Below, piece after piece: positions 1 to 17,877 of a stretch of DNA of 17,877 nucleotides. The stretch comes from Candidatus Krumholzibacteriota bacterium (GTDB lineage: Bacteria; Krumholzibacteriota; Krumholzibacteriia; LZORAL124-64-63), in contig JBDLKA010000077.1 of NCBI GenBank assembly GCA_039714075.1, positions 1 through 17,877 of the forward strand. The letters run 5' to 3'. The notes under the pieces are model-generated. The model was not told where the DNA came from, did not search any database, and saw nothing but the letters and a program-made list of their open reading frames with translations. The translations under genes were made by a program, and so were the position numbers. Every line of letters begins with the position of its first letter. The first letter of the stretch is position 1.

Positions 1-1004
1 TGCCCGAACCCTACACCGGCATGAACCCCTATGAGGTCTATCGCTCCCTCGGTTGCTTGGCCCGCCTGTACGAGTACAATTCCTGTTTCCGGCGCATCGA
101 GCATCCCGGGGTGCGCTTCGTCCGGCGCGACCTGAACGAGACGGATGTGGAAACGGTGGTCGAGACACCGGTGGGCACACAGACCGCCGTGCACCGGAAA
201 TCCCTCAACAGCCCCCACGGGATCACGTTGAAGTGGGAGGTCGAAACGCTCGAGGAATTGAAGGTTGCCACCTGGCGCGAGGAGAACGCCGCGTGGGAGT
301 GGGACCAGGAGGAATTCGACCGCCACATGCGCACCTGCGGCGACCTGGGCGCCCCCACCATGTTCATGCCGCGGATGAACGTCCAGTGCCTGTACATCGA
401 GAAGATGGGGGTGGAGAAGGGCGTGTACGCCATGTTCGAATGGCCGACGGAGATCGAGACCTTCTTCGGCGTCCTGGACGAGAGCCACGACCGGTTGATC
501 GACGTCATCAACCCTTCGCCCGTCGAGATAATCAACTTCGGCGAGAACATCCACGCGGGAACGCTCTCGCCGGACCTGTTCCGGGGCTATCACCTGCCGG
601 CCTGCCGGCGGCGGTGCGAGAAGCTCCACGGCGCCGGGAAGTTCGTCACTTCCCACTGGGATGGCGACACGAAACCGCTGCTGCCCTTCGCCAGGGAAAC
701 GGGGCTGGACGGCATCGAGGCGATCACTCCCTACCCGCAGGGGGACGTGACGCTCGAGGAGATGAAGGATGCCCTGGGGGACGAGATCTTTCTTCTGGAC
801 GGGATCCCGGCCATCTACTTCGACGACACCTACCCGGTGGAGACGCTCATCGAATGCACGGAGAAGCTGATCGAACTGTTCGCGCCCAGGCTGGTGCTGG
901 GGATCTCGGATGAGATATCATCGACCGGGGACATCGAGCGGCTGCGGGTCGTGGGCGACATCGTGGACGAGTACAACAAGCGGGTCGATCCCGGGATCGA
1001 CTGA
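1..1004 (+). CDS. Uroporphyrinogen decarboxylase/MtaA (URO-D/CIMS-like) superfamily protein, 5'-truncated
   Basis: Frame is open from the window edge (PEPYTG precedes the ATG at 21), so the real start is probably upstream. Motifs TPVGT, INFGEN...LSPDLF, SHWDG, GLDGIEAITP.PQGD, LLDGIP and LVLGISDE fit the URO-D-like TIM barrel. Adjacent to a corrinoid protein. Confidence 0.8.
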   Translation, partial: PEPYTGMNPYEVYRSLGCLARLYEYNSCFRRIEHPGVRFVRRDLNETDVETVVETPVGTQTAVHRKSLNSPHGITLKWEVETLEELKVATWREENAAWEWDQEEFDRHMRTCGDLGAPTMFMPRMNVQCLYIEKMGVEKGVYAMFEWPTEIETFFGVLDESHDRLIDVINPSPVEIINFGENIHAGTLSPDLFRGYHLPACRRRCEKLHGAGKFVTSHWDGDTKPLLPFARETGLDGIEAITPYPQGDVTLEEMKDALGDEIFLLDGIPAIYFDDTYPVETLIECTEKLIELFAPRLVLGISDEISSTGDIERLRVVGDIVDEYNKRVDPGID

Positions 1005-1013
1005 GGAGCACCC

Positions 1014-1697
1014 ATGGAAGAACTGCTGGAAAGACTCGCGGTCTGCATCGAGCACGGCAAGGTCGACGCCGATTCTCCCTATCCACCGGAATTGAAGGGA
1101 CAGGAGGGGGCGACCGAATTGACGAGACGGGCCCTGGCCGCCGGCTGCCCGCCCCGGGAAGTGCTCGCCGGCGGCCTGATGACCGGCATGGGGCGCGTGG
1201 GAGACCGCTTCGAGAAGGGCGAGGCCTTCATCCCCGAACTGCTGATCGCCGCCCGGGCCATGACCGCGTCGATGGAACTGCTCAAGCCCTATTTCGAAAG
1301 CGGGGACATCGAGTACCGGGGCAAGGTCATCCTGGGCACGGTGGCCGGCGACCTGCACGACATCGGCAAGAACATCGTGCGGATGGTGCTCGAGGGCGAC
1401 GGCTGGGAAGTGATAGACCTGGGCGTGGACGTGACCACCGAGCAGTTTCTCGACACGTTGGCCGGGAATCCCGGCAGCCTGGTCGGCCTGAGCGCCCTGT
1501 TGACGACAACCATGATCAACATGGAAAGGACCACGGCCGAGATCCAGGTAAAATATCCCGGTACGCCGGTCTTCGTGGGAGGGGCGCCGCTGTCCGATGA
1601 GTTCTGCGCGAAGATCGGCGCGAGCGGATATTTCCAGGATCCGCAGAAGTTCGCGAAACATCTGCGCGGGCCGGCTGATACCGAAGGCGGGGACTAG
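1014..1697 (+). CDS. Cobalamin-binding corrinoid protein (methyltransferase cognate, MtaC/MetH B12-domain type)
   Basis: GTVAGDLHDIGKNIV (DxHxxG base-off/His-on motif), DLGVDV, VGLSALLTTTM and VFVGGAP. N-terminal cap domain GM..VG.RFE.GE.FIPELL.AA.AM. GAGGAG RBS upstream of the ATG. Confidence 0.95.
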   Translation: MEELLERLAVCIEHGKVDADSPYPPELKGQEGATELTRRALAAGCPPREVLAGGLMTGMGRVGDRFEKGEAFIPELLIAARAMTASMELLKPYFESGDIEYRGKVILGTVAGDLHDIGKNIVRMVLEGDGWEVIDLGVDVTTEQFLDTLAGNPGSLVGLSALLTTTMINMERTTAEIQVKYPGTPVFVGGAPLSDEFCAKIGASGYFQDPQKFAKHLRGPADTEGGD

Positions 1698-1701
1698 CGG
1701 C

Positions 1702-2754
1702 ATGTCGCAATCCTCGCGTGAACTCGTCCGGCGCGCGTTGCGGTTCGAGCACCCGGAGCGCCTGCCGCGCCAACTCTGGACGCTGCCCTGGGCGAATATC
1801 CACCATCCCGGGACGGTGGCGGAGTTGGAACGGCGCTACCCTGCGGACATCGAGATCTGCCAGTACTTCTACCGGCCCTCGCAACGCGCCGAGGGCGACC
1901 CCTACCGGGTCGGCACGAGCACCGACGCGTGGGGCTGCGTGTTCAGGAACATCCAGCCCGGAATGATCGGCGAGGTGGACGAGCCCATCCTGGCAAACAT
2001 GGCCGATGCCGCGGCCTACCGGCCTCCCTGCGAGCAGTTGCCCAAGGCCGGAAGCCGTGAGTGGTCGGAGGCGCAGGACGTGATCAGCCGCTTCCACGCC
2101 GGGACCGACAGGTTCGTCTTCGCCAATATCGATACCCGGCCCTGGGAGCGGTACCAGTTCCTGCGCGGCACGGAGAACGCCCTTGTCGATGTACTGATGC
2201 CCGAGTCTGGAATGACCGATCTGCTGCAGAAGATCCACGGGTTCTACCTCCGGGAGCTGGAGTTCTGGTGCGCCGCGGATGTCGACGCCATTCCCCTGGC
2301 CGACGACTGGGGGACGCAATCCAACCTGCTGATCAACCCTGATCTCTGGCGCGAGCATTTCAAGCCGCTGTACCGCGAGTACTGCGAGATGGCCAGGGCC
2401 CACGGGAAGTTCGTGTTCCTGCATTCGGACGGCTTCGTCACCGACATCTACGAGGATCTCATCGAGATCGGCATCGATGCGGTCAACTCCCAGCTCTTCT
2501 GCATGGACATGGGCGAGCTGGCCCGGATAGGCAAGGGCAGGATCACCTTCTGGGGCGAGATCGACAGGCAGAAGGTGTTGACCTCGGAGAACCCCGAGGA
2601 CGGCCGCGCGGCGGTGCGCGAGGTGGCGCGGCACCTGTACGATCCGGCCGGCGGGATCATCGCGCAGTTCGAATTCGGAGCCGGGGCGAACCCGGAAACC
2701 GTGATGGTGATTTTCGACGAGTGGGAGAAGGTCCATCGTGAAGCGACCCGATAA
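1702..2754 (+). CDS. URO-D/MtaA superfamily protein (putative methyltransferase component)
   Basis: Likely start is the ATG at 1702 (MSQSSRELVRRALRFEHPERLP), 4 nt after the corrinoid stop. Motifs TDAWGC, WER.QFLRG.EN, DDWGTQ..LLI.P..WRE.FKP.Y, FLHSDG and FWGEIDRQ. Confidence 0.9.
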   Translation: MSQSSRELVRRALRFEHPERLPRQLWTLPWANIHHPGTVAELERRYPADIEICQYFYRPSQRAEGDPYRVGTSTDAWGCVFRNIQPGMIGEVDEPILANMADAAAYRPPCEQLPKAGSREWSEAQDVISRFHAGTDRFVFANIDTRPWERYQFLRGTENALVDVLMPESGMTDLLQKIHGFYLRELEFWCAADVDAIPLADDWGTQSNLLINPDLWREHFKPLYREYCEMARAHGKFVFLHSDGFVTDIYEDLIEIGIDAVNSQLFCMDMGELARIGKGRITFWGEIDRQKVLTSENPEDGRAAVREVARHLYDPAGGIIAQFEFGAGANPETVMVIFDEWEKVHREATR

Positions 2755-3682
2755 CAACATCAGCAACAGGGACCGCCTGGTCACGATTCTCGAGGGAGGG
2801 GTGCCCGACTTCCCGCCCCATTTCGAGATCACTTTCCAACTGGGCAAAGAGTTCTTCGACATGGATTGGCAGCAGGTGAACGAGGCGCCGTATGCATCGG
2901 AAGCGGCCCGGACGGAGGCCCTCGAGGATTTCCACATCGAGCTCCAGCTGCGGTTGATCGAGGAGTTCGACTACGCGGCCGTGCAGCCCCCGAACAGCCT
3001 GGCGGGCATAGAGAAGACGAAGAGGGCGGTGGGGGAGCGGGCGCTGGTCGCGCCGCACGACTGGGACGGGGTGTTCTGGATGCCGGGCGGCAACGAGATC
3101 ATGCAGTTCGTCGAGCGGATGTACCTGCGTCCGGACGAGATGCACGCGGAAGCGCGCACCAAGTGCGACGCAGCCAAGCTGCGCCTGGCGCAGCAGGCCG
3201 ACGCCGGAGCGGACTTCTTCCTGCTGGCCTACGACTTCGGTTTCAACAACGGCCCCTTCATCTCGCCGACGCAGTTCGGTGAATTCGTGGCGCCCTACCT
3301 GGACGAGATCGTCGCCGCCGTTCACGACACGGGCAAGAAGGCGCTGCTGCACTCGGACGGCGACCTGAACCTGCTGCTCGACAGGATCCACGCCACCGGC
3401 ATCGACGGCTACCAGTCGGTCGACCCCCAGGGGAACATGGACATCCGGGCGGTGCGCGAGAGGTTCCCGGACTGGATCCTGATGGGCAACGTGAACTCGG
3501 GCATGCTGCAGTTCACCGACGAGGAGAAGATCCGCGAGTCGGTGGACTACTGCATGGAGCACGGGGGCGTGGGGAAGAGGTACGTCTTTTCGACCAGCAA
3601 CTGCATCTTCGACGGCATGCCGGCCGGGAGCTATCGGATGATGTTGAGGGAGTACCGGAAGTGGGCGACCGATCCGGGATAG
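2738..3682 (+). CDS. URO-D/MtaA superfamily protein
   Basis: GTG start overlaps the previous gene. Motifs DFGFNNGPFISP.QF.EFV.PY, LLHSDG, GIDGYQSVDPQGNMD, LMGNV and FSTSNCI. Confidence 0.88.
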   Translation: MKRPDNNISNRDRLVTILEGGVPDFPPHFEITFQLGKEFFDMDWQQVNEAPYASEAARTEALEDFHIELQLRLIEEFDYAAVQPPNSLAGIEKTKRAVGERALVAPHDWDGVFWMPGGNEIMQFVERMYLRPDEMHAEARTKCDAAKLRLAQQADAGADFFLLAYDFGFNNGPFISPTQFGEFVAPYLDEIVAAVHDTGKKALLHSDGDLNLLLDRIHATGIDGYQSVDPQGNMDIRAVRERFPDWILMGNVNSGMLQFTDEEKIRESVDYCMEHGGVGKRYVFSTSNCIFDGMPAGSYRMMLREYRKWATDPG

Positions 3683-14005: not shown

Positions 14006-14178
14006 TCTTTTTCTCCTTATTAATTGTTTGGCGATTGGGACTGCAGGAAATTTACCAGCCATAATGATTTACTGTCATCAACAATGTTTTACCCCAGGAA
14101 TCCCAATTGGTGTGGCTTGATTCGGTGCCTGTGGCTACAGTGGGCTTGTGGCGGAAACAACATGAGAGGCCGTTTGGA

Positions 14179-15015
14179 ATGGAAACCGTTTGGGCAGGCA
14201 CACTGAAGAAAATGCGGGTGGAAGCCGCTGCTCCGGTGGAATACCACTTCACCGACGGCTGGTGGGAAAAAGAGAACCGCGCGACCGATCACGGAGTGAA
14301 CGACCATCTGGGCAAGCAGTTGGTGATCCGCTTTTCCGGCGAGATCAACTGCACCGCCTGCGGCCGCAAGACCAGGAAGACCTTCGCCCAGGGTTACTGT
14401 TTTCCCTGTTCCATGTCGCGGGCCGAGGCGGACATCTGCATCATCAAACCCGAGATGTGTCATTACGGCCAGGAAGACAACCCCTGCCGCGACGAGGAAT
14501 TCGCCCGGTCGCAGTGCTTCCGTCCGCACATCCTGTACTGTTCCATGACCAGTGGCGTGAAGGTGGGGATCACGCGGGAACCCAACGTGCCTTCGCGGTG
14601 GATAGACCAGGGGGCGGTGGCGGCCATTCCCGTGGCGCGCATGGCGGACCGGCGCACCGTCGGCCTGGTGGAAAAACGTCTCATCGGCGAGGGCTTTGCG
14701 GACAAGACCCACTGGACGCGCATGCTCAAGGGGAATCCCGAGGATTTCGACCTGGCCGGGGCGGTGGCCAGGGTGGTGGCCCGTTTGGAGGATTGGGGCG
14801 AAGAGGGCATCCTGCCGGAATCCGAAAGAAGGGAACACCGGTTCGAGTACCCGGTGCTCGACTGGCCGACCAAGGTCAAGAGCTTCAACCTGGACAAGGA
14901 TCCCGAGGCCGGCGGCGTGCTGCAGGGCATCAAGGGGCAGTACCTGATTTTCGACGGCGGGGTGATCAACCTGCGCAAGTACGCCGGTTACAAGGTGGAG
15001 ATCCTGGCCGGCTGA
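14179..15015 (+). CDS. DUF2797 domain-containing protein (Cys-rich)
   Basis: Probable start is the ATG at 14179 (METVWAGTLKKM). Motifs G.I.C..CGRKT.K.F.QGYCFPC, CI.KPE.CH...CRDEE....CF.PH..Y, KVGITR....RWIDQGA, DKT.W..ML and L.GIKGQYLIFD.GVIN.RK..GY. Confidence 0.85.
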   Translation: METVWAGTLKKMRVEAAAPVEYHFTDGWWEKENRATDHGVNDHLGKQLVIRFSGEINCTACGRKTRKTFAQGYCFPCSMSRAEADICIIKPEMCHYGQEDNPCRDEEFARSQCFRPHILYCSMTSGVKVGITREPNVPSRWIDQGAVAAIPVARMADRRTVGLVEKRLIGEGFADKTHWTRMLKGNPEDFDLAGAVARVVARLEDWGEEGILPESERREHRFEYPVLDWPTKVKSFNLDKDPEAGGVLQGIKGQYLIFDGGVINLRKYAGYKVEILAG

Positions 15016-15199: not shown

Positions 15200-15205
15200 A
15201 GGAGG
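15200..15205 (+). promoter_or_regulatory. Strong Shine-Dalgarno for the 87-aa peptide
   Basis: AGGAGG lies 7 nt upstream of the ATG at 15213. Confidence 0.8.
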
Positions 15206-15212
15206 AAACAGA

Positions 15213-15476
15213 ATGAATCAGAAAACGAATCCCCAGGACAACCAGCAGCCCGACCTTGAGGCGAGCCTCAGAAGGCTTGGCATCAGGGAGCTCGAGGAAC
15301 GCATGGAGATCAGTCCGCTGTTGACCGATACCGGCACCACGGCCACCGATCCGGATGTACCTTCGATCTGCTGTACCTGCAAGATTCCCGATCCCTTCGG
15401 CAAGGACGGGACGCTGCCTTATCCCACCATCGATCTCGGCCCCACCGGTCCCACGAATCCCAACGGGATGTGGTAG
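15213..15476 (+). CDS. Small peptide, putative RiPP precursor
   Basis: 87 aa with a perfect RBS. Amphipathic/acidic leader-like segment DLEASLRRLGIRELEERMEISPLL, a Thr/Asp-rich linker, a CCTCK cluster and a Pro/Gly/Thr-rich tail. Its stop overlaps the next start. The precursor role is inferred from context. Confidence 0.75.
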   Translation: MNQKTNPQDNQQPDLEASLRRLGIRELEERMEISPLLTDTGTTATDPDVPSICCTCKIPDPFGKDGTLPYPTIDLGPTGPTNPNGMW

Positions 15477-16675
15477 TGCCGACCTCCGGTGACAGCCGCC
15501 CGCCGCGGTCCGGATCTTCGCGGAGTTCCGGACCCGGCCGGCGGGACGGCAAAACGGCGGCCGATATCCGCGGGCAGTGGAGCGAGGCCGACTTCACCTG
15601 GGAGTTATGGAATCTACGGGCCCTGCTGCCCGATGCCTGCCGCGGTGATCTGCTGGATATCAAGCTCCGGCAGGAACTGGTGCTGGCAAGAGAGCGGGAG
15701 GCTCTTGCCGGTCTGTGGACCGGGGACCGGGACATCCTGGCCCCGGGCCACGGCTTTCTGGAGCGGAACCCGGAGCTGAAATCCGGGGTGACCGTGTCCA
15801 TGCACCTGGGCCCCTACCAGCTTCTGGCGGAACCCTTCCTGGCCGCGGGCCTGGAGCCGGTGATCCTGCTCAACAGCCAGGCCATGAAATCCTTCCAGCC
15901 GGGGACCAGGGCCCTGGTCCACCATCTGGGGTATCGCACCAGGATCCAGTGGGTGCCAGTGGGCGGCCGGGGATTTGTCCGTGCCCTGGTGCGGGCCGTC
16001 AGATCGGGCCGTCCGGTCCTGGTTTACCTCGACGGCAACAGCGGGGAAAAGGGGATGGAGGAAACCCGCAACCGCGGCTTGAAGTACAGCCTGCCCGGCC
16101 GCGACATCAGGGTCCGCACGGGATTGGCCAAACTGGTGTGCCGGCTCGGCTGTCCCGTACACCGTGTGTCGCTTCACTGGTCCGATGAATGGGATCTGAT
16201 CTGGCGCCGGGACCCCACCTTGACCTGGGGCCGGAGCGATCATCCCGACGTGGTGACCCGGGTGCTGTTCGACTGGTGCTTCGGCCGGATCATGGCCCGG
16301 CCCGAGCAATGGCAGTACTGGGCCATGCTGCGGGAATCCAGCGCGTGTTTCGGCAAGGGCCTGGGCGATGAAATCCGCGTTCCCGCGGGCCTGCGGTCCG
16401 ATTTCCGGAAATCCTTCGTGGCCTGCCTGGAAGGATCGCCGGAAACGGTGCGGATGATCCTGGAAAAGGAGATTGAGATATGGACGGGTGATGTGCTGGC
16501 CGATCTGACCGAGGACCGTTTCTATCCGGCGGACGGCATGAGCGACGAGGACCTCGACCCCCTGCGCGAAGGCCAACCCACCCTGGCCGAATTGACGTCC
16601 TACCACGGGGAATCCTGGGTCCGGTTCCATGGCCTGCGGCTCTGCCTGCTGGGCATGGCCCGGTTGGGCGGTTGA
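15470..16675 (+). CDS. LpxL/HtrB-like (LPLAT/LABLAT) acyltransferase with a C-terminal extension, possibly RRE/PqqD-like
   Basis: Motifs G...VSMHLGPYQ (H-G-x-Y/W block), .L.RA.RSG..V.VYLDG, V.TG.AKL....GCPV and I...PEQW.YW. GTG start at 15470 or 15476, overlapping the peptide stop. Confidence 0.75.
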   Translation: MVVPTSGDSRPPRSGSSRSSGPGRRDGKTAADIRGQWSEADFTWELWNLRALLPDACRGDLLDIKLRQELVLAREREALAGLWTGDRDILAPGHGFLERNPELKSGVTVSMHLGPYQLLAEPFLAAGLEPVILLNSQAMKSFQPGTRALVHHLGYRTRIQWVPVGGRGFVRALVRAVRSGRPVLVYLDGNSGEKGMEETRNRGLKYSLPGRDIRVRTGLAKLVCRLGCPVHRVSLHWSDEWDLIWRRDPTLTWGRSDHPDVVTRVLFDWCFGRIMARPEQWQYWAMLRESSACFGKGLGDEIRVPAGLRSDFRKSFVACLEGSPETVRMILEKEIEIWTGDVLADLTEDRFYPADGMSDEDLDPLREGQPTLAELTSYHGESWVRFHGLRLCLLGMARLGG

Positions 16676-16678
16676 AGG

Positions 16679-17877
16679 GTGACGCCGGTCCTGGAAATCG
16701 TTTCGCATCCCACGGGGCCCTGGTTGGTGAAGGCGGGGAACATCATGTACGCGGTGCCTCCCCGGCTCGGCCGGGCGTTGCGGCCCCTGGCGGGGCGGTT
16801 GCCTGCCCGCCGGGAAATCCGCAACTGCCTGGCCGAAGTCCGGCGGGGCCATGAACTGTCAAAACCTGAAATCGATACCTGGGTGGATGAACTGGGTCGC
16901 GCCCTGGCACCCGACCCCGCGCCGGCAAAGGGCCGGGCCGGGCTGCGCCGGGTCGGCCGTCCCATCCGCCTGCGCGTTCCCCTGGTTCCGGCCCCCGTCG
17001 TGCGCCGTCTCGCGGGCATTCTGCGCGTGCCGGCCGGAAACCGTGGCCTGGTGTTCGTGGCCGCGTTGGGTTTGGCGGGGTACGTGGCGGCGGGATACAT
17101 GGCGGCCGGGTCCTGGCGGGTCGGGTTCTCCTGGGACCTCGAAACCGCGGCCGCCGGGCTCGGCCTGTTTCTTTTGACCGCGGTCTGGCACGAACTGGGT
17201 CACGCCGCGGCCCTGGCCCGGTCGGGATACCCCCCGGGGGGCATCGGGGCCGGGGTGTTGTTCGTGATTCCGGTCCTGTTCGCCGACGTTACGGCCATGG
17301 GCGTTCTGCCGCGGGCCGGCCGGATCCGGGTAGATGTTTCCGGAATGATCTTCCAATTGGGGGCCGGAGGTTTTCTCATGGCGCTGGCCGCCTGGGGTGG
17401 CGCCGACCGGGCCTGGACCCCGGCCCTGACCCTGGCCGGATCGTCGGCCCTGCTGGCGATTTCCTGGAGCCTGTTCCCCTTCCTCCATTCGGACGGCTAT
17501 TGGCTGCTGTGCGATCTGCTGGGACTGGAAAGCCTGGACCGCCCGCCGGCCGAACCTGCGGGAAAGGGTCTACGGCTATTTTTGGTGGGGTATCAGCTGA
17601 CCAACGCTGCGTTTCTGCTGATGATCGGAGTATTTTTCCCCTGGAAAATGGTGGGGTTGTTGGGTGGTTTGGTCCAGCATCTGGGTTATTCCCTGGATTC
17701 AGCGACCGGGCGGTGGGTGGCTGTTGCAGTGGGTTTCGGGTTCGTGGCCATGCTCGGGGTGGGCGTGGCCCACAGGGTAATGGCCCTGATCCGCTCGGCA
17801 CGCGCCGGCATACTGGATATCACTGCGAAAAACGCCCCCCGGGGGGCATTTGGGGACAATAAATATGTTGTCAATAG
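16679..17877 (+). CDS. M50 (site-2) membrane zinc metallopeptidase, YydH/EpeP-like, 3'-truncated by the window
   Basis: Translated by hand from the GTG at 16679 (MTPVLEIVSHPTGPWLV...), with no stop before the window end. HELGH at 17189-17203, then G..G.G..FVIPVLFADVT, RIRVDVSG and SLFPFLHSDGYWLL.DLLG at about 17468-17524. Several TM helices. Not in the supplied ORF track. Confidence 0.88.
   Translation, partial: MTPVLEIVSHPTGPWLVKAGNIMYAVPPRLGRALRPLAGRLPARREIRNCLAEVRRGHELSKPEIDTWVDELGRALAPDPAPAKGRAGLRRVGRPIRLRVPLVPAPVVRRLAGILRVPAGNRGLVFVAALGLAGYVAAGYMAAGSWRVGFSWDLETAAAGLGLFLLTAVWHELGHAAALARSGYPPGGIGAGVLFVIPVLFADVTAMGVLPRAGRIRVDVSGMIFQLGAGGFLMALAAWGGADRAWTPALTLAGSSALLAISWSLFPFLHSDGYWLLCDLLGLESLDRPPAEPAGKGLRLFLVGYQLTNAAFLLMIGVFFPWKMVGLLGGLVQHLGYSLDSATGRWVAVAVGFGFVAMLGVGVAHRVMALIRSARAGILDITAKNAPRGAFGDNKYVVN

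Follow-up and report, generated by a model that had tools for sequence, protein, structure and literature searches.

Here we describe a protein domain encoded in a 17,877-nucleotide contig of a Candidatus Krumholzibacteriota bacterium (GenBank assembly GCA_039714075.1, contig JBDLKA010000077.1; the whole stretch is called the window below). Three tightly packed genes of the window would encode an 87-residue precursor peptide, a 401-residue acyltransferase-like protein and a metalloprotease-like protein carrying an HExxH motif. The C-terminal domain of the second protein is probably a recognition element (RRE) of the kind used in the making of RiPPs (peptides synthesized by the ribosome and modified after translation). 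The reading that we favor, with moderate confidence, is that residues ~327–401 form a PqqD-type RRE at the C-terminus of an acyltransferase of the PatA/LpxM fold, and that the protein acts as an RRE-guided peptide acyltransferase. An earlier note on this DNA, made from its letters only, had pointed to about 115 extra residues past a PEQW.YW motif, where ordinary LpxL proteins end, and had read an RRE/PqqD-like winged-helix domain in them, at 16448–16675, which is residues 327–401 and the stop codon. Such a tail does exist, with a length of ~110 residues (292–401) beyond the acyltransferase domain: the generic LpxL-like proteins found with phmmer align to the query up to residues 284–292 and no further, and in relatives the Pfam family PF03279 stops at profile position 286–289 of 295, at the equivalent PEQW.

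The domain alone, modeled with AlphaFold2 from 27 sequences, reached a predicted local distance difference test score (pLDDT) of 90.1 and a predicted template modeling score (pTM) of 0.82; the full-length model, from a 40-sequence alignment, has a mean pLDDT of 84.3 and a pTM of 0.73. In both models, strands are predicted at residues 328–331, 335–338 (IEIW), 342–345 (VLAD) and 350–353 (RFYP), and helices at 306–322 (a connecting helix), 359–367, 372–379 and 381–393, with a short final strand at 397–400. The three strands (EIEIW, VLADL, RFYPA) and three helices that had been read from the sequence are thus all at the claimed places in both models, to which the modeling adds a strand ahead of them, the short terminal strand and the connecting helix. 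The predicted fold is the beta-beta-beta-alpha-alpha-alpha winged helix of RRE type, as the earlier note had expected, and this PqqD-like arrangement, which in RREs consists of a three-stranded antiparallel sheet and then three helices within about 80–90 residues, is found both in the model itself and in the structural comparisons that follow.

The domain model was compared by VIA-align with 48,161 representative chains, and the best 50 rows were considered. RiPP biosynthetic proteins account for 15 of them: TbtB (Z 6.4), the RRE domain of PbtF (Z 6.1; root-mean-square deviation (rmsd) 3.1 over 76 aligned residues, in a chain of 86), TigE (Z 5.9), MibB (Z 5.8), ThcOx (Z 5.4), MccB (Z 5.4; chain residues 1–82), LynD (Z 5.2; chain residues 6–85), PqqD 5sxy (Z 4.9; rmsd 2.9 over 79 residues), TbiB1 (Z 4.9, and 4.9–5.1 across both searches), NisB (Z 4.8), McbBCD (Z 4.8), MadB (Z 4.7), lasso B1 (Z 4.5), CteB (Z 4.1) and TglHI (Z 3.4). 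Altogether, 16 chains reach Z>=5, no chain reaches Z>=8, and according to the tool's own note a Z below 8 may reflect merely a common arrangement. In a second VIA-align comparison, of the 415 candidates brought up by Foldseek, RiPP enzymes fill 11 of the best 15 rows, including LynD 4v1v (Z 6.2, rmsd 2.5 Å over 73 residues) and TruD (Z 6.0, rmsd 2.5 Å over 74 residues). TbiB1, together with its leader peptide (E 1.0), and LynD also head the non-significant Foldseek list for the domain. To judge by entry titles or by N-terminal ranges, the alignments with PbtF, TbiB1, PqqD, LynD, TruD and MccB fall at the leader-binding domain; the aligned ranges in NisB, MibB, MadB and TbtB are, we presume, their leader-binding regions.

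Winged helices of DNA-binding proteins are also among the structural matches, and the domain could be imagined as a winged helix-turn-helix that regulates its own operon. We hold this to be highly improbable. FUR, ArsR, MexR, CzrA and others do appear at Z 3.3–3.6, and 3dee at Z 5.5, but these rows rank under the RREs and align only 50–62 residues. In addition, the strands of the domain precede its helices, unlike the order in classic regulators of this type, and the domain is always fused to an acyltransferase of membrane-associated type. The match to 3dee is to be expected of an RRE, because 3DEE is the outgroup that the RRE-Finder paper, in its main text, places closest to the RREs.

A remote link to PqqD emerges from the comparison of sequence profiles through an intermediate group. 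In a library of 1.8 billion proteins, many distant LpxL-like proteins carry 55–130 residues after a PxQWxxW motif, and among those that represent clusters at 50% identity, at least 44 have a C-terminal extension of at least 90 residues. With hhalign, the profile built from the C-terminal part of 37 sequences of the window family matched a group of 12 such distant proteins at 62.4% (E 7.4e-5, 97 co-linear columns), and this group in turn matched 20 bona fide PqqD domains at 71.7% (E 3.5e-5, 72 columns); four controls with reversed columns gave 0.2–0.9%. The 20 PqqD domains, all from the same phylum, served as a proxy for an HHpred comparison with the PDB. In the resulting register VLADL corresponds to beta-2, RFYPA to beta-3, DLxxLRxG to helix 1, PTLxEL to helix 2 and WVRFHGLRLCLLG to helix 3, in agreement with the predicted structure, and the terminal L..LG to which the earlier note had drawn attention falls on the hydrophobic end of helix 3 in PqqD. 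Through this two-step profile chain, the domain is probably a remote homologue of PqqD.

The distant relatives themselves point the same way with matches of their own. When 44 of them were scanned with NCBIfam, two PqqD models were the only non-acyltransferase families with at least two members, and Pfam recognized PqqD in 2 of the 44 (best E 0.011). The C-terminal extension of P0149 (residues 767–818) matches PQQ_PqqD at 0.0018 and lasso_PqqD at 0.0044, and that of P0214 matches lasso_PqqD at 0.0031 when scanned alone and up to 0.018, all of them below threshold. Some of these relatives, P0146 (854 residues), P0149 (829 residues) and P0271 (881 residues), have two LpxL-like units in tandem in one chain, and in P0146 each of the two acyltransferase units is followed by an RRE-like extension of its own. 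Scans of metagenome contigs with an alignment of distant relatives and with P0155 found no relative.

The pattern of conservation within the domain is consistent with a surface that holds a leader peptide. All 40 homologues in the alignment keep the domain, and 15 of its positions between W338 and R398 are invariant. Mean identity over these 40 sequences is ~96% in beta-2, ~91% in beta-3 and ~93% in helix 3 (residues 383–395), as against ~69% in helix 1 and ~59% in helix 2; R350 and F351 occur in all 40, and the invariant basic residues are R350, R366, R390 and R398. The main text of the RRE-Finder paper places the bound leader between strand 3 and helix 3 of an RRE and describes these two regions, beta-3 and alpha-3, as more conserved than the remaining domain.

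At the level of genomes, a search of 151 genomes that sample the phylum found the domain profile in 53, 52 of them among the 60 genomes of the window's own Krumholzibacteriota family; in the 90 genomes of eight other families of the phylum there is none. Most genomes have one copy, three of the 53 having a second, partial or weaker match, and, evident fragments aside, the match always lies inside a long open frame. The domain alignment was also searched against 5.8 billion proteins of 60–193 residues. All 21 matches are fragments of the same family, none with a Pfam domain, and so no free-standing relative of the domain was found among them. Retained as it is across homologues and genomes, the RRE-like domain is not a chance feature.

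The catalytic part of the protein is more firmly placed by structure than by sequence families. With the full-length model as query, Foldseek returned 14 matches at E<=0.001, every one of them either PatA of mycobacteria or LpxM of Acinetobacter, which assigns this part of the model to the acyltransferase fold. The best match is 5f2z_C, with E 1.1e-8 over 257 columns. For the window protein itself, Pfam gives no PF03279 row at E<=1 and PF01553 at 13.7 bits, where the cut-off is 23, and NCBIfam gives the PIM acyltransferase model PRK07920 at 13 bits against a cut-off of 209; precomputed PF03279 matches exist for 33 of the 120 homologues listed. All but one of the 40 homologues have H112, and the residue five positions further on (117) is Q in 33 of the 40 and never D or E. 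D188, in YLDGN, is present in all 40. The alignment of 44 distant LpxL-like relatives has only five invariant columns, two of which are the equivalent H and D. As PatA, HtrB and MsbB pair their His with a block-3 Glu/Asp and not with the D of HX4D (PMC4792965, in the text available), H112 and D188 are a plausible catalytic pair, in which D188 would be equivalent to E200 of PatA. At the other end of the protein, residues 1–28 are disordered in the model, yet a basic motif, RxxRSGxxRSSGPxRR, is conserved in most of the 40 homologues; it is possible that this stretch contacts the membrane or a partner.

The genomic context strongly resembles that of a RiPP pathway, with a conserved cassette of precursor, enzyme and protease genes. 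In the window, the GTG start of the acyltransferase gene overlaps the stop of the peptide gene by 7 nucleotides, and the HExxH gene begins 3 nucleotides past the acyltransferase stop. A search of one genome per species yielded 40 related loci, almost all in metagenome-assembled genomes labeled Krumholzibacteriia. A peptide gene lies directly upstream of the acyltransferase gene in 38 of these (32 by tblastn and 6 by reading of open reading frames (ORFs)); the other two start inside the acyltransferase gene and have no upstream DNA. The HExxH gene lies downstream in 36 of 40, and the other four contigs end within 230 nucleotides, so that every miss is a truncated contig. A precursor gene and a maturation gene adjacent to the enzyme, as is expected of an RRE, are therefore the rule in this family.

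The precursor peptide has the build of a leader followed by a core. Residues ~15–37 of the leader read LEASLRRLGIRELEERMEISPLL, with the consensus SLxxLGIxELEERLExSPLL across relatives; after the leader come a variable linker, a Cys-rich core (CCTCK, residues 53–57) and a Pro/Gly-rich tail. In an alignment of 27 peptides L19, L22, R30, E32 and C54 are invariant, and each of them is encoded by two to four different codons, which indicates that selection acts on the protein. The core is mostly CCxCK, with CCHDKC and CxCxCxCD as variants. At least three core types can be told apart, CCxCK(I/M)P, CCHDKCSGND and a CxCxCxCD type without Lys (compare L010, L011, L012, L014 and L022 with L033, L036 and L038). 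Cys is the sole core residue common to all of them, which argues for Cys over Lys as the common site of modification. One locus (L031) has two tandem precursor genes ahead of the acyltransferase gene (L031:4205-4438 and L031:4451-4660), which share an LEERLEVS leader and differ in their Cys-rich cores. We also looked for co-variation of leader and domain in 19 paired loci and set it aside: the occurrence of PLKIxQLEERLEVS together with WVKFHALRL in helix 3 tracks the family tree and is inseparable from shared descent.

The third gene product matches the NCBIfam model daptide_HExxH (NF041824) with E 1.3e-21 and 77.1 bits over residues 13–362 and model positions 17–371 of 379. Since 77 bits fall short of the equivalog cut-off of 300, the protein is a relative of the daptide family and not an equivalog; it also matches RiPP_HExxH_LiaK (E 1.5e-6). 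Its first ~75 residues (window 16679–16900) appear, from their sequence pattern, to be a second RRE-like unit. In 34 sequences this N-terminus keeps LEVxxHPxGPWLVxAG..xxAVPPxLGRAL.PLxGRxPxxxELR, the turn LxPLxxGxPxxxEL is common to it and to the C-terminal domain of the acyltransferase, and the daptide_HExxH match extends over it; its hhalign comparison with PqqD gives 0.3%, which is not significant. The text of the daptide preprint presents its protease, MpaP, as an intramembrane peptidase that depends on an RRE.

A distant relative, P0203 (836 residues), joins in a single chain a PqqD-like unit (E 2.6e-4), an HExxH protease of daptide type (E 4.3e-30), a domain resembling LpxL and an RRE-like C-terminal extension, in the reverse of the gene order of the window. 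That the two enzymes are fused there speaks for a functional connection of the protease and the acyltransferase that are encoded side by side in the window. It could also be taken to suggest a complex, and the domain might be a docking module for a protein partner, either an acyl carrier protein (ACP) or the HExxH protease, that holds a membrane-bound processing complex together. The invariant R350, R366, R390 and R398 could in principle meet an acidic ACP, but the acidic ELEERxE leader would be an equally good partner for these basic residues, and no ACP- or protease-docking module is among the VIA-align neighbors considered. Moreover, P0203 retains its C-terminal extension despite the covalently attached protease, and therefore tethering of the protease cannot be the only role of the extension. 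We regard docking as a quite improbable account of the domain.

Several results weigh against an RRE-guided peptide acyltransferase, and they have to be set beside the evidence given so far. Direct sequence tests of the domain for PqqD fail: Pfam PF05402 has no match at E<=10 on either the 116-residue or the 75-residue piece, NCBIfam gives no family at E<=10, and the PF05402 scan of the genome finds two other sites (contigs C133 and C1) and not this domain. When the domain is compared by hhalign with the 20 PqqD domains directly, the values are 0.5% and 0.3%; hmmsearch with the domain and the full-length alignments against PDB sequences gave only a chance row for MLL1 (E 0.65), and an ESM Atlas search with the domain found nothing. 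Both links of the profile chain (62% and 72%) lie under the rule given in the main text of the RRE-Finder paper, an HHpred probability of at least 80% to PDB 5SXY or 3G2B. In structure, Foldseek has nothing at E<=0.001 for the domain model, the VIA-align Z of at most 6.6 is middling by the tool's own scale, and the top row is CmlS (Z 6.6). Winged helices of YcfD/NO66 type and those of GATOR/SEA score level with the RREs, and thus the fold alone cannot single out peptide binding. The model also has an extra N-terminal strand, and the link between helix 2 and helix 3 is much shorter than that of PqqD. On the side of catalysis, the acid of HX4D is missing and no Pfam or NCBIfam acyltransferase cut-off is reached by the window protein, and for these reasons acyl transfer itself can only be inferred. 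Finally, some fused RREs are perhaps vestigial according to the main text of the RRE-Finder paper, and the RRE-like N-terminus of the protease could be the working leader reader. Of the assignment made in the earlier note, what stands is borne by the fold, the structural neighbors, the profile chain and the gene context; a direct match to PqqD and a Foldseek match at E<=0.001 did not materialize.

In one alternative, the domain is a winged helix of a generic kind that serves structure, in dimerization, as a lid or support, or in orientation at the membrane, like the C-terminal winged helices of YcfD/NO66 oxygenases or CmlS; the peptide, provided that it is a substrate at all, would be read elsewhere (for instance by the protease N-terminus or by the acyltransferase groove). 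Such a role fits with the lack of a direct PqqD signal, with the observation in the RRE-Finder paper, as far as its main text goes, that fused RRE-like domains are sometimes vestigial, and with the scores of CmlS (Z 6.6) and of proteins of YcfD-like, NO66 and MINA type (Z 5.1–5.8), which match those of the RREs and whose alignments, of 87–99 residues, take in a larger part of the model, including the helix 306–322. We nevertheless consider it unlikely. The secondary-structure order is that of RREs, the compact matches over the 75-residue core (rmsd 2.4–3.4 Å) are for the most part RREs, the profile chain reaches PqqD and not other winged helices, and conservation peaks on beta-3 and helix 3. 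Furthermore, a leader that is near-invariant over 27 loci requires a reader.

If the domain is an RRE that guides the acyltransferase, it would capture the conserved leader (SLxxLGIxELEERLExSPLL) of the co-transcribed 87-residue precursor, most likely as an added strand along beta-3 (RFYPA) and against helix 3 (WVRFHGLRLCLLG), as in solved RRE complexes. The flexible linker (residues 292–305) would give the Cys-rich core (CCxCK) access to the groove of the acyltransferase, where H112, with D188 as its likely carboxylate partner, would pass a fatty acyl group from acyl-CoA or acyl-ACP to a side chain of the core, either a Cys thiol or a Lys amine. The downstream HExxH intramembrane protease, with what seems to be an N-terminal RRE-like unit of its own, would then cut off the leader. 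The analysis shows the domain boundaries, the predicted fold with its structural neighbors, the conserved three-gene cassette and a conservation that is concentrated on beta-2, beta-3 and helix 3; we infer the homology to PqqD, the binding of the leader, the acylation of the peptide and the sequence of events.

Compared with PqqD and discrete RREs (TbiB1, 6jx3 and the RRE of PbtF), the domain is alike in its ~75–85 residues with three strands and then three helices, in a Z of 4.5–6.1 over 71–79 aligned residues, which is almost the whole of these small proteins, in the conservation peak at beta-3 and helix 3 and in the adjacent precursor gene. It differs in being fused, in having no direct sequence or profile match, and in its extra leading strand and much shorter helix 2–helix 3 link. 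With the fused RREs of the LynD and TruD cyclodehydratases, of MccB, of the NisB, MibB, MadB and TbtB dehydratases and of CteB, it shares the principle of a leader-recognition module within a modifying enzyme, and LynD and TruD give the best compact superpositions on it. In LynD, TruD, MccB and CteB, however, the aligned domain is N-terminal, whereas that of the window protein is C-terminal and its partner is an acyltransferase of the LPLAT superfamily.

With PatA and LpxM/LpxL, the window protein has in common the fold of residues ~30–291 (Foldseek E 1e-8 to 1e-7, TM-score 0.55–0.67 on the target), a His in an HxG motif, a carboxylate in a DGN block and the PEQW end motif. These enzymes end at PEQW and acylate glycolipids; the window protein adds a 110-residue tail, has no HX4D acid, stays under the curated cut-offs and stands in a peptide-protease cassette. 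The RiPP lipopeptide systems with GNAT enzymes (selidamides, lipolanthines, goadvionins, lipoavitides and aphotorhaptins) have, according to the available text of a 2026 paper on RiPP N-acyltransferases (PMC13647313), the outcome that we propose for it, a leader-directed fatty acylation of a ribosomal peptide, but their acyltransferases belong to the GNAT superfamily and not to the LpxL/PatA fold. The resemblance to daptide MpaP, as far as it is described in the preprint text, lies in the almost full-length HExxH model match and in the RRE-like N-terminal unit of the window protease; the daptide decarboxylase, aminotransferase and methyltransferase are absent from the window.

In the published record, the RiPP literature that we found on an acyltransferase with a precursor peptide concerns, in the text available, side-chain acylated RiPP lipopeptides. 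In its available text, the 2026 paper deals only with GNAT enzymes for RiPP lipopeptides, and the terms "RRE", "LpxL" and "lipid A" do not occur there (PMC13647313). The main text of the RRE-Finder paper, its supplement aside, names glycosyltransferases and glutathione S-transferases as new RRE fusions, and the word "acyltransferase" never occurs in it. Our literature search, supplements aside, found no published RRE fused to an acyltransferase of LpxL/PatA type. The window protein would thus probably combine a recognition module of a known kind with a catalytic partner of a new class.

If this is true, a new enzyme class is added to the fusion partners of RREs, and a second, unrelated route to genetically encoded lipopeptides exists besides the GNAT pathways. 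The distant LpxL-like proteins hint at a large hidden family of peptide-lipidating enzymes: given the at least 44 distant clusters with a C-terminal extension, many proteins labeled "lipid A biosynthesis lauroyl acyltransferase" may act on peptides. More tentatively, the cassette might define an undescribed RiPP class, in which an LPLAT acyltransferase with its own RRE lipidates a Cys-rich peptide and an RRE-bearing HExxH protease releases the product. Since the cassette is single-copy, occurs in 52 of 60 genomes of one family and has conserved synteny, the product is perhaps a lineage-wide, membrane-anchored lipopeptide and not a sporadic antibiotic; it may be, for example, a metal- or redox-active cofactor-like molecule. 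The system is small, with its three tightly packed genes, and amenable to direct testing.

Table 1. Features of the three-gene cassette, in window coordinates.
Feature	Position	Strand	Basis or remark
Candidate Shine-Dalgarno AGGAGG	15200..15205	+	7 nt 5′ of the precursor peptide ATG; read from sequence
Precursor peptide gene, 87 aa	15213..15476	+	ORF; related ORFs at homologous loci
Acyltransferase-like gene, 401 aa, GTG start	15470..16675	+	ORF
Basic Arg/Ser/Gly/Pro-rich N-terminus, residues 1–28	15470..15553	+	pLDDT <50; motif conserved
PatA/LpxM-fold acyltransferase domain, residues ~30–291	15557..16342	+	AlphaFold2 model and Foldseek
HLGPYQ with H112	15803-15820	+	in acyltransferase domain
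YLDGN with D188	16025-16039	+	in acyltransferase domain
PEQWQYW, residues 278–284	16301-16321	+	end of acyltransferase domain
Low-confidence linker, residues 295–302, and connecting helix, residues 306–322	16343..16447	+	AlphaFold2 models
RRE-like winged-helix core, residues 327–401	16448..16672	+	AlphaFold2, VIA-align, profile chain to PqqD
RFYPA strand, residues 350–354, corresponding to RRE beta-3; putative leader-pairing edge	16517..16531	+	hhalign register against PqqD
Helix-3 segment WVRFHGLRLCLLG, residues 383–395; putative other wall of the leader groove	16616..16654	+	conservation, PqqD alignment
HExxH intramembrane metalloprotease-like gene, 3′ end beyond the window	16679..17875	+	NCBIfam daptide_HExxH match
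HELGH, residues 171–175 of the HExxH protein	17189-17203	+	read from sequence

Outside the cassette, the genes of the window are ordinary ones for metabolism and transport. A protein of DUF2797 (E 5.6e-82) that contains a Cys-rich stretch resembling a zinc ribbon is encoded at positions 14107–15015, just upstream of the cassette. We considered it as a fourth member of the cassette and set it aside, as it is syntenic in many loci and lies 2–5 kb off in others. At positions 3–3682, three URO-D-like genes (MtaA/CmuA-type) stand around a gene for a B12-binding domain, in what looks like a corrinoid-dependent methyltransferase system with no relation to the RRE-like domain.

Two more of the 40 loci depart from the usual layout. 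In one of them, ~1.9 kb separate the acyltransferase gene from the HExxH gene (L009:7239-9124), two genes that elsewhere abut. In the other (L040:6001-7446), a divergent copy with 33% identity over residues 40–360 is found, whose frame extends over 482 codons and has no C-terminal domain, although pieces resembling the leader and the HExxH protein are close by; this copy may be frameshifted or decaying.

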